NCBI GenBank assembly: GCA_030141605.1
Contig: JAQGDQ010002383.1
Span: 298,418 to 362,417 of the forward strand
Direction: 5' to 3'
From: Tubiluchus corallicola
Lineage: Eukaryota; Animalia; Priapulida
DNA length: 64,000 bases
Shown: one piece after another, positions 11,801-17,800 of the stretch
Layout: the number at the start of each line of letters is the position of its first letter
Position numbering within the stretch: the stretch's first letter is position 1
Made by a program: the position numbers and the translations under genes
The notes under the pieces: model-generated
Told to the model about the DNA's origin: nothing
Seen by the model: the letters and a program-made list of their open reading frames with translations, nothing else
The model's database searches: none

Positions 11801-14800
11801 CGCATGTTTTCTGGCTTATTTTCTTTTGAATTAGCGACATGTTTCTTCTGTTTTTCAAACGGCAGATGATGGTGAGACTTATTTGTTGTAAATTTGCACA
11901 GTGATGCACCCTTGTTTTCGATGGCATCTCAAACTGTGGGCAGCACGTCCACAAAGTTGTCGTCTTCCTCCTCTAAAGTGCACAACCTTTGTGAAAATCT
12001 GTGTTGTAAACAATACTGCACAAACCTTCTGTCATAAAATGAATCATCAATGGTGCAGGGTATTTTCGAAATTTAGCAATAGGAAAATCGGTATCAAGTA
12101 ACATTTTAACTTTAGAAAATACGGTTTGTTCTCATCATTTTAAGAGGAAAAACTATTTCCGATACCTGGTGGCTAGCTTTTGTAGCCTGGTGACACTTGA
12201 ACACAATCAATCAACATTACTTAACTTGTTGAACAAGCTTATATTAGATTTGCTTACTCAGTGGGTTTTACTTGTTTCTTATTATGATACTTGTAGTCAT
12301 TGATTTCCCAGCTTTGTGACCCTTTATTTAACAGAAATTGAGAAAATTAGTAGGCCGGATTTGTTGTATTAGTCGGCTTCGATGTTTTGCACAACTTTCT
12401 TTCTACACCCTTTGCACTTATGACATACATTTCAGCTTTACATTTAGCTACATAGTGAAAGAGCTGCTGCTTTTTACAGTAGCGCCAGCAGATTATTAGG
12501 TAATGCCTTTGTTCTAGTGATCTATTAGCAAGTCGTCTGTTGTAGCAGTCGGTGTTTGTGGGTTTTCTAGGAAATATGAACAACAGATTTTATGATTTCA
12601 TTCATATTATTTAGTCTTTACGCAAAAATGATTCTCATGATGTTATTGAAATGAAGGGTATGATAAACACAATCTTAGACCTGACTCCGCTTGTGGCATT
12701 AGGAAGTCTGCTTCTGATTTGAGCGACACAAGTGGCCTTCCCTAAACACATAACCATTTTGTGAAGGTGTTGGTAACTTTTACCTGGCAGGTGTTTCATG
12801 TGGAGGTGTTATGCTGTGCTGTTTTGACAGCTGCTGTTACGTTTTAACATAAAAAGTGGTTATTTATTTAAAGCATTTGTTACAATTATGTGTTTTTTAA
12901 TCACTTATTTGATAATGTGTACTGTTTAGTTGCTTGTTTGTATTATAGATTTTTTAATTTTTGAATTCATAATTTTCTTGTTGCGTAATATAGTATACAT
13001 CCAATCTTAGAGTTGCATTTATAAATTGAAATGTAGCTATTTTATACGACTTGTTTATTCGATTTTTTACATTTACTAGAAAAGACTGTTGATATTGCAA
13101 TTATAGTAATAACTATTCTGTAGTTTTTTTTTGCAAATATGAATGTATGTGTATAGCCATCGTTTTCAGTTTTTACGTTTATAAAAATTCTCCTTTGAGT
13201 TTTTTGGCATTCATTTTTTACCACAAATAATCTGGGAATTTAGTTTAGCGGCAGAGTGACTAATCGCATTTTCCATGTGAAAAATACTGGAGTATATTGA
13301 ATCTATTGTTCACATAACTGTTAACTAAATAGCATTGTAAAGCTTTTTCACTGTTGGATAAGTAAAACCTGCATCAGCTCAAATATACAAAAACTGTCTA
13401 GTCACAAGGTACCTATATTTTCAACCTGCCAAGGAATTGTATTGACATTTTGACTTCTTAGATTGAGCTTTTTCATCTTTATTTTTATACATTTAGCCAA
13501 AAACTCAATGTTAATTAGTAGCTTCCTAATTAGATCTGGTAAAAACTTAAAATGATGGTGTACGTATGCGCTGTCAGTTATGCCTTTGTTCATAGCATGC
13601 TGTGGAGAAAATTTTGACAATGATTACTGGTACATGTATGTATTTTTCACATTCTGGGTTGAAACGGACTAGGTAGGAAACCAAGCCATTTATTGTTGAG
13701 TTCTTTTTTGCAGTCGGAACAAATAAACCAGGCATTACCGCTGAACGAAAACAAATTATACGGTCAAAAATACGTGCAATAGGCCGCATTGCACGCATGT
13801 ATCATGTCCTACGGTAAGTGGAGAAGCGAACCACCCTGGAAACCTCCGCATTGCATGGAGTGCCTAGTCGTCGATGCAAGTGCTAATGCATTAGAGATGC
13901 CTGCGGCTAATACTAACATTATATTGTTTCTAAATAGAGTGTATTTGCTTCCGAAGTGAAGAGAATTCTTAAACCTAACCGGGCACTAAACTTATTTTTT
14001 AATAAGTGCCTTACTGATTTGATATTGAAGCAACGATTCAGTAAATGCCCTTACTAGTTACACTCGGTGTTCATTTCACGGTCCCCTTATTACTTTGCTT
14101 TACAGGGAAAAATGTCGATGAGTTAATAAAAGAATTAAAACTTATTCAGCCTGTGTGTGTTCGCTCAGACCTAAGACTTGCGGCATCAGATGAAGACCTA
14201 GGTATAAGAACTGCGAATGATGCGCTTTATTATTAACAAAGTGGAGCTGAATATGAATTGTGCTGTTGCATATAATTAAATATGACTGACTAACATTTTT
14301 TTTTAAATTCTGGTTTTGTATTCAGTTAAAGAATAGGAACTTGAGCAAAAAGTACGAATTGATCTTTTTTACCTTTGTTGTTATTTAAAGCCCGTTGGCT
14401 TTTTTGTTGTATGAGTAGGTGTGCGTGTGCACGTGCGCGCGTGTGTGTGAATTTTATATTGTTATTCTAGAGTTGCCAGATTTGGCAGTTTAAGTCCTTA
14501 AACTAGTGTTGAAATTTATCAACGACCATCAACAGTTTGGAATATTATTAAAAAAATGAGAATATGCACTTATGGCAATGTTACTTTTCGTAACACTGTT
14601 CGTATTTCCTGACTTGTGTGATGTTTTGATTTGGGTGCCCTGCTGTTTTTTTTTTTGTCAGTATATGCTTATGTTCAAGTCGACCTTATGTACAAGTCGA
14701 TGTGCATTTGAAGACCAAAAATTGTATCATTTTGTATATTACCTGTGTACAAGTCCACCCAAAAATATTAAGATCTTCCAGAGTAAATGATGTCAACAAT

Positions 14801-17800
14801 GGCCGAGTAATAAATCAATAGCCTACTGTGTTAGTGTGTAAGATACGTGCAAGTGCCTGGGCCGAGTATATTATACCTACCCGATGTATATATATATATA
14901 TATATATATATATATATATACTCATGTTGAGGGCCATCAATGCAATCCATGATAATGCAGCCTGGCCTTTCATCACGCATAATTGTTTGTAATGCCTTTA
15001 ACGCTAGTATATCGAGCCCAGGATCCGTCGTAACATTTCAGTCGCTGATTTCTCAATTAAAACTAAAAACACATACCTGAAACGGCACAGTTTTATTCAG
15101 TAACATCTTTTGAATAGAAATACATCTCAGTTTTCAAATATCAATTCCGTTTATGCATATTTACGCTAGATTTTCAACAGTCAGTATCAATCTGAAGATT
15201 GTTTTTGCTCCTATATTTACATGTACTGATCGAGTGCTCCGTCGCTAGTTCATTTGCCGGTAATATATAAATTTTAACTTAATTTCACATACATTAAAGT
15301 AAATTGCAGTAATATTTCTTAATTTTGTGAAGTAAGATGCAAACATTCTCTGATGTGAAGTATCACAGTATGAGTGTTCATTCAGTCCAGTGTATAATGA
15401 AGGATTATTTCTTTACATATTCGTATTGTAGACGACTCTTTAGCGACATATCCCAAAAACTTATCTTAAGTATAAGTCGACCCGAAAAATTTCACCTTAA
15501 AATCGCCTCCCAAAAATTCGACTTGTACATAAGTATATACGGTACTATGTAGACGGTTAACTTCACTAATGCCGCCCATACTACTAATTGACATTAATTA
15601 GAGACCTTCTTAAGTGCAATATGCTGGAGTCAAAGTTTAGAAATGATAAATCTCGATTTTTATATCTTACAGTAACATCTTAGCGTCTGTTTCTTTCACC
15701 TGTTTTGTCATGCTGTATCAGTGGAGGCTTGTAGCTAAAATAAGTGGGGTGCTGCTTCAGGAAATTTTTAGCCATTGTTTTAATGCTATGCAAAATGAAA
15801 CAAAACATATGTAATTTTAATGTTGTAATTTGTAATTGTAATTTTAAACAAACAAGCATACAAAAACATACGTAAACTTGATAAAATCCTAAAAGAAAAA
15901 AATTTTGCTTACGAATAGCCTAAATTGCTGCAGTTCAAGAATATGCCAGTACATGGTTTTTAAGAACGTGACAACTGACAACTGTGTGAGTGACAGTACT
16001 TTCTCTACCTAGCAGCAGATGCTAGCAGTGCAGCACAATCATGTGCTCTGGTTCCGTACAAGTATAAAGAAAGAACTAAAGAAAAAAGACTTATTGTATT
16101 GAATATTATCGATAATATTGAGTGAAAATAGGGGGTGCTGCAGTTCCGATACTTATACACAAGCCGCCACTATGCTGTGAACTGGTTTAAGTGATTCGAC
16201 AGCACGCGCCCCTTTATATGCCATATATCTCTCATAATTTATGTACTCACAATGTTAAAAAAATTCCTGGCTTATAATCTGGCAACTCTAGCGAAAATTT
16301 AACAACTGTTTGTTACTGGTTTTTTTTTATTAATTATTTTTCTTTTTACAGTTATACTTTTTTTGGAGAACTTAATCAGTTATAGTTTGATATGCCTTTG
16401 CTTGTATATTAATAAATATTTGTCATATTTATAGACTAGAAAACTTCGGCTTCAGTAGTGGTCTGAATCCTTTATTAATATTTTGTGTGCGAGTAACTTA
16501 CTAACACGCTCATGCATGATTTGCTTGCTTGATTTGCCAACAGGGGGAGCTGCAGCAGCAGCACGGAAAGAAGTGATTAGAAATAAAATTCGGGCAATTG
16601 GTAAAATGGCAAGAGTATTCTCCGTTCTGAGGTGAGCCTTACTAATTCTTGTTTGCATGTTGCTATAAGTCTCACAGTAGTTTAGTTTTAGTGCACTGCA
16701 AGTGAAATCAAACTTTGCAAATGAGTCGAACTTTGTTACGCGTAAGCATATTTCACTGCAATAATTGTGCCTCCTTACTGTCTCAGTTAAACAAAGCAGC
16801 AATGAAACATCACATCTGACAGATAATGCAATTATTCTTTTGAAATTTTGATGCCTAAATGCAGAAGATATAAAATTTGCTGCTTATATTGTTGAGTAAT
16901 ATGTTGAAAACAACAGCAACATCAGATATTTACTACTAAGATTCTAGAGACATTTTTAGTAATCTCATTGGCACATTTGCTTTAATCGAAAGACCTCATT
17001 GATTCTTCTTTATTAGTGTCTATAAAGTTTGCAGTCTAGTATGAAAGAGGGTTTGAACAAGTACCTGTTGTTATTACTGCATTTTTATTGCTGCGGTTTT
17101 ACGTTGTACTAAAGCGGTGAATATTTGAAATTCTTTTCAGAGAAGAAAGCGAAAGTGTACTGCAGTTAAAGGGTCTCACACCTACAGGATTGCTACCACT
17201 GGGTGCTTTGTCAGGGGGAAAGCAGAGCTTGCAGGGAGGTGAGTACTACATGATGGCGGAGATATTATTGCCATCCAGCACAAATGTTAAGTGCACAGTT
17301 CATAAGTTATTTTCATTGTCACATTTTCTCTATTTGATTTAGTGGTAATTTGGTTTTCTGCTAGTTAGCCTACTTGGCTGACTTGAAGATAGTGAGGAAT
17401 CATAGGATGCTGAATAATGTATTCTGAGTCTTCATTTTTAACAAAATCATGCGCCTGTAAACTAAACAATTCTGTAAATGCCTTTTTTTACGTAACTAGT
17501 ACTGTATATTTCGTTTTTTATTTGATTTCACTATGAAAAAATACAATATTTGCTGTAAATTCTAAAACTTTAGGAGAAATATGTTACTAACGCCAACGTG
17601 AATGATACAGAATGCTGTTTCGGTAATATGAGAACAGAAGTATGTACCCGACGTTTATCAAAATATTTTAGTAACTATGCATTCAAGTTATACAACTTTT
17701 TTCTTTTAACGAGTGTTCTTCTGTTCTGCGAATATGCGGTAGCAAATTCGATTCCATCAAAGGAAAACATAGTTTTCTTGCAAAGTACTTTTTTCTGCGA

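Follow-up and report, generated by a model that had tools for sequence, protein, structure and literature searches.

A calcineurin A locus with paired calmodulin-binding exons

The stretch of Tubiluchus corallicola DNA analysed here, hereafter the window, comprises 64,000 nucleotides (contig JAQGDQ010002383.1, positions 298,418 to 362,417) and carries a calcineurin A gene on its + strand, of which two thirds, at the 3' end, lie inside it and the 5' exons outside. A tblastn comparison recovered the phosphatase domain, the helix that binds calcineurin B (CnB), the calmodulin-binding helix and the autoinhibitory domain in this order, and alignment to named calcineurin A proteins gave up to 93% identity over 266 residues. 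Eight constitutive-type exons extend from 5744 to 19569. Between the one ending at 10252 and the one starting at 17141 lie two versions of the exon for the calmodulin-binding helix: exon A (13714..13813, +, 100 nucleotides), a divergent copy of the calmodulin-binding and autoinhibitory-segment exon, and exon B (16544..16631, +, 88 nucleotides), the canonical one. We think it fairly likely that the gene splices A and B as mutually exclusive alternatives, which would yield a canonical phosphatase and a variant with predicted altered calcium control.

Both exons are bounded by AG and GT and run from phase 1 to phase 2; their coordinates, lengths, splice sites, phases and peptides are as given in the initial annotation. 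With either A or B alone, the reading frame stays open to the natural stop at 19567-19569. Inclusion of both creates a premature stop inside exon B (GAT TAG), 149 nucleotides upstream of the last junction, and skipping of both creates one in the next exon (AGT TAA), 69 nucleotides upstream of that junction, so that the earlier claim that exactly one of the two is usable was confirmed. Exon A was found within the window by tblastn of full-length calcineurin A at an E value of 7e-6. Its acceptor is normal, and its donor (ACG/GTAAGT) matches the consensus at 8/9 positions; a score of 8 or 9 is reached by only 6 of the 890 GT sites in 5900-19400, five of which belong to exons named here. The pair has several features of homologous mutually exclusive exons, namely adjacent copies, shared phases, canonical sites and unproductive transcripts when both or neither are included. 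Chance similarity was rejected on the E value and the strong donor. Origin of exon A in a separate paralogous gene was also rejected, because tblastn found no other calcineurin exons near it, as was alternative use of an acceptor or donor in place of two exons, because A and B do not overlap.

Upstream of the pair, all on the + strand, the catalytic domain is encoded by exons at 5744..5883 (the first found in the window), 6822..6899 and 8513..8607, and its end, together with the start of the CnB-binding helix, by an exon at 9422..9547; these four were placed by tblastn, AG/GT borders and an open frame. The exon at 10175..10252 (tblastn, AG/GT borders and frame) completes the CnB-binding helix, encodes the linker LR1 and ends in phase 1. 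LR1 is the linker where many animals carry optional inserts, and a splice-site scan with scores placed two candidate frame-preserving microexons there, of 3 nucleotides (11192..11194, +) and 6 nucleotides (11866..11871, +). Downstream of the pair, likewise on the + strand, follow an exon for the linker LR2 (17141..17238), a 9-nucleotide LR2 microexon (17858..17866) that corresponds in position to alternative exon 13 of vertebrates and was predicted from a donor matching 9/9 positions, and the coding part of the last exon (19412..19569) with the autoinhibitory domain and the stop. The LR2 exon and the last exon were located by tblastn and frame. A 492-nucleotide contig from a public run (X1) joins exon B to the exon at 17141, to the microexon and to the last exon, which confirms the gene model 3' of exon B, including the 16631-17141 junction proposed in the initial annotation. 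X1 differs from the window at 6/100 and 9/166 letters in two exons. Of its 70,053 contig records 41 were placed, none of which covers exon A, and a run this small is uninformative for or against exon A use. Searching runs with the exon A sequence brought up none from RNA; X1 appeared only by its species label.

In a protein tree (FastTree, 113 rows) the gene falls outside the mollusc-type and coral clades and has no supported sister; the nearest sequences in the sample are from arthropods, with 93% identity to a cricket. Downstream of the gene lie fragments of non-LTR retrotransposons (24200-27300, with an RVT_1 match at 25181-26317). The region from 29327 to 64000 holds three tandem copies, of about 14-15 kb each and 94-99% identity, of a phenazine-biosynthesis-like gene (PhzC-PhzF, PF02567). 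The last two copies are 99.4% identical over 7.1 kb, reflecting either a recent duplication or an assembly artefact.

Divergence of exon A and selection on it

We compared the helices using human numbering from residues 389-414 of PDB 1AUI/4ORB. The exon B helix is identical to residues 392-414 of human CnA-alpha, and the exon A helix differs from it at 8/23 residues (E394Q, V395I, N398S, K405R, M406I, V409M, F410Y and S411H), seven of the eight substitutions scoring positive in BLOSUM62. The linker preceding the helix is also altered. The initial annotation had restricted the changes to M406, V409, F410 and S411; these four hold, and the other four and the linker have to be added. As a reference we assembled 391 helices (28 distinct) from 371 proteins and 80 loci, a sample biased by the queries and by a search pattern that exon A itself would pass. 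Every one of these helices has at most three differences from the exon B (human) helix. Five exon A residues, Q394, R405, I406, Y410 and H411, occur in 0/391, and the remaining three do occur (M409 in 2, S398 in 17 and I395 in 54 of the 391). K405, M406 and F410 are invariant (391/391), and position 411 is occupied by S in 253, T in 98, Q in 29 and A in 11 helices. The view that the helix is nearly invariant in animals thus stands for the helix as a whole and fails for position 411. Loss of the phosphosite there is common, given that 40/391 helices carry Q or A, and the initial annotation overstated it as exceptional. Judged by its sequence, exon A is the most divergent copy seen.

Over the 22 full codons from R392 to L413, exons A and B differ 8, 4 and 17 times at the first, second and third codon positions, respectively. 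Fourteen of the 22 residues are identical, 10 of them through different codons, and the proportions of synonymous (pS) and nonsynonymous (pN) differences are 0.88 and 0.28. The 100 nucleotides of exon A contain neither a stop nor a frameshift. We simulated this divergence under a simple model with exon B frozen and HKY-like mutation (1,500 runs per setting). When exon A decayed neutrally from the outset, no more than 0.27% of runs matched the observed counts. Under purifying selection with omega of 0.05-0.2, 14-23% of runs matched at the best setting, omega 0.1 reaching up to 23%. These results support an old tandem duplication with purifying selection on exon A, in line with the initial annotation, and favour a present or very recent function of the exon.

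Searches for relatives of exon A covered several resources. A protein search with its reading frame returned no candidate; this was a weak search, which also missed a protein (P0022) sharing a nine-residue stretch. HMMER over 1.84 billion representatives gave one match (P0121), a result that leaves room for an A isoform grouped within a canonical cluster. The ESM Atlas returned only unnamed matches at 0.78-0.80. A metagenome scan with an alignment of A and B yielded 235 confirmed loci. None of the best 80 of the 235 was A-like and none of these 80 had a second exon copy; 15 of the 80 are genomic, of which five span the previous to the next exon and one more covers the upstream intron. On one metagenome contig, a second, degenerate and intronless calcineurin A piece lies behind the first (L043:4546-4704). 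In the full-text literature searched, which is thin on subscription papers, alternative exons for the calmodulin-binding helix of calcineurin A are not described.

Paired versions in gene models of molluscs and a sea urchin

P0121 is an unnamed open reading frame of 111 residues that reads through two tandem mussel-type helix copies, each trailed by residues fitting a read-through donor. The spacing inferred from the peptide is about 53 nucleotides, as against 2,730 nucleotides between A and B here; an intron that short is one to which steric exclusion could apply. By searching with P0121 and listing cluster members, we found two non-nested versions of the segment among RefSeq isoforms of Mytilus californianus, M. 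galloprovincialis, M. edulis, Magallana gigas, Saccostrea, Ostrea edulis and Strongylocentrotus purpuratus, all of them automatic gene models that were compared as proteins. In 8/8 aligned isoform pairs (four from Mytilus, two from oysters and two from Strongylocentrotus) the sequences were identical except from 14 residues before to 12 after K399. The two Mytilus versions correspond to the two P0121 copies, save for position 411 of the first copy.

The Mytilus pair XP_076073996.1 / XP_076073998.1 and the Magallana gigas pair XP_034312784.1 / XP_065923471.1 represent one gene with two versions, each used alone, a design that T. corallicola would share, and Strongylocentrotus purpuratus (XP_011678782.1 / XP_003727335.1) likewise has two non-nested versions. 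The extent of change differs: the versions diverge at 3-4/23 helix positions in Mytilus, at 0-1 in oysters and at none in the sea urchin, with M406 and F410 kept throughout, whereas here eight positions differ and both of these residues are changed. In Magallana, Saccostrea and Strongylocentrotus the versions differ only ahead of the helix; in the oysters, and above all in the sea urchin, small upstream exons are a possible source of the difference, although the sea urchin is probably a case of the same two-version design. All Mytilus alternative copies carry E394K, which in M. galloprovincialis raises the helix charge from +7 to +9, and in two isoforms of M. californianus (X8 and X2; P0296 and P0298) Thr takes the anchor position I396 of the alternative exon.

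Only one helix version was found in Mercenaria, Dreissena, Ruditapes and Mactra (1-3 proteins each), and no alternative helix turned up among the isoform groups of arthropods, fish, flatworms and corals, whose differences ahead of the helix looked, by eye, like acceptor shifts, microexons or species differences. At the level of predicted proteins, the two-version design is not unique to this animal and is latent in mollusc gene models, since RefSeq mussel and oyster models hold two versions of the calmodulin-binding exon. The statement that the arrangement is undescribed is accordingly true of the papers found, and has to be qualified for the databases.

Splicing choice, predicted effects and significance

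We asked which mechanism could enforce the choice between A and B. Steric exclusion and a U12/U2 lock are inapplicable because the A-B intron measures 2,730 nucleotides and all splice sites are GT-AG (U2 type). A Dscam-type pairing of docking site and selector was not detected: the best duplexes of the four splice-site regions were equalled or beaten by 11-25 of 25 shuffles, and inverted repeats included no docking-selector pair above shuffles. As minor-intron locking, steric blocking and docking-selector pairing are inapplicable or were not found, the likely arrangement is that the frame rule together with nonsense-mediated decay acts as the filter and splicing factors act as the switch. Transcripts with both exons or neither would be removed by nonsense-mediated decay, splicing factors would choose between A and B, and exon A would be used in some tissue or stage.

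For the effect on the protein we relied on published structural and biochemical work. Calmodulin contacts comprise I396, I400, I403, F410 and L413 and the basic residues R392, K393, R408 and R414 (PMC6151454), and exon A keeps eight of these nine, with Tyr replacing F410. Because the contacts are otherwise kept, the net charge is +8 (A) against +7 (B) and the hydrophobic moments are similar (0.41 and 0.38), the A isoform is predicted still to bind Ca2+/calmodulin. The regulatory positions fare differently. Met406 packs against Phe410 at the edge of a calmodulin pocket, and its oxidation is cited to abolish binding (PMC2671406); phosphorylation of S411 by CaMKII and PKC is cited as inactivating (PMC3749960); and ARVFSVLR is cited as the segment that docks in the CnA-CnB groove (PMC8470620), so that the mapping of these elements in the initial annotation agrees with the literature. 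The LxVP site is described as blocked by elements within the calmodulin-binding site (PMC7456046). Since exon A rewrites residues 405-411, it is reasonable to predict that redox, phospho- and auto-inhibitory control are changed. The A isoform would no longer be subject to oxidation at M406 or phosphorylation at S411, and the replacement of VFS by MYH would loosen the autoinhibitory segment and lower the activation threshold, a direction that is a guess with an even chance of being right. On this point the initial annotation was overstated in one respect: exon A gains Met409 and is for this reason not methionine-free. It also retains V412-R414, which belong to the CMK-1 site reported at S443 of TAX-6 (PMC12503234).

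Several observations weigh against a functional, retuned exon A. No exon A orthologue was seen, and the case for selection consists of one comparison of 22 codons between paralogues and a simple simulation. At five positions, M406 and F410 included, exon A carries residues unseen in the 391 helices, and these changes could be damage rather than tuning. Moreover, the oyster and sea urchin versions with the same or nearly the same helix imply that the exon can be duplicated without any retuning of calmodulin sensing. The second point bears on the possibility that exon A, formerly a working alternative, has fallen out of use and is decaying, only the B isoform being made. A two-phase history, with long constraint followed by about 0.2 neutral changes per site, matched the counts of identical and synonymous codons in at most 13% of 3,000 runs. 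However, only about 3/100 of the fitting runs were as conservative as observed, and a decaying exon would have had to keep a normal acceptor, a donor among the top 6/890 GT sites and 100 nucleotides free of stops and frameshifts. We regard decay as quite unlikely.

The third point leads to an explanation that we judge unlikely, if slightly less so than decay: exon A is spliced, the two isoforms are nearly alike towards calmodulin, and either the linker ahead of the helix is what matters or the pair serves mainly to control expression through unproductive splicing. The conserved main calmodulin contacts, charge and hydrophobic moment fit this explanation, as do the Magallana, Saccostrea and Strongylocentrotus versions that differ only before the helix, and splicing in the LR1 and LR2 linkers is a known theme (PMC12503234, PMC5577920). 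It sits poorly with the eight helix changes, which cluster at 405-411, where both the Met406/Phe410 calmodulin pocket (PMC2671406) and the autoinhibitory segment (PMC8470620) are located. A poorly activated or dominant-negative A isoform, which would bind calmodulin or CnB and autoinhibit more tightly or fail to activate, seems very improbable to us: the buried calmodulin anchor F410 has become Tyr and M406 is invariant elsewhere, but the changes are conservative and leave the basic residues intact or add to them. We retain the reading that A and B are likely alternatives: a real exon pair, mutually exclusive by reading frame, that lies at the calcium sensor of calcineurin A and probably has a function.

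Known splicing of calcineurin A affects neighbouring parts of the regulatory domain. The exons 13a and 13bc of C. elegans tax-6 are, like A and B, homologous mutually exclusive exons in this domain; their use is tissue-specific, differing between neurons and muscle, and they are non-redundant in vivo (PMC12503234). Those exons encode the linker LR2, after the helix, and the helix is constant there, whereas here it would be swapped. In vertebrate PPP3CA/B/C, splicing of exons 10a and 13 changes the regulatory domain on either side of the calmodulin-binding domain (PMC5577920, PMC12503234). These are cassette insertions in the linkers, at places occupied here by the 9-nucleotide LR2 microexon and the two candidate LR1 microexons, in contrast to replacement of the calmodulin-binding helix itself.

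We propose, tentatively and as a view that may well prove wrong, that an unnoticed regulatory switch, in which mutually exclusive exons exchange this calmodulin-binding and autoinhibitory helix, recurs among bilaterians, namely in mussels, oysters, a sea urchin and this animal. Exon A would be its extreme form, giving a natural calcineurin that responds neither to oxidation at Met406 nor to phosphorylation at Ser411, whose autoinhibitory segment does not dock normally, and which has a calcium threshold of its own in a specific tissue. The helix at 392-414 has two jobs, very tight binding of calmodulin and helping to hold the enzyme inactive, and it shows little variation among animals; why calmodulin is bound so tightly and how the inactive state is built are named as open in a review (PMC7456046). 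An apparently selected natural variant that differs at eight residues from a canonical copy in the same gene could show, without further design, which of them govern calcium threshold, redox sensitivity and autoinhibition, and public RNA-seq data for the mussel and oyster pairs would already allow the splicing question to be addressed.

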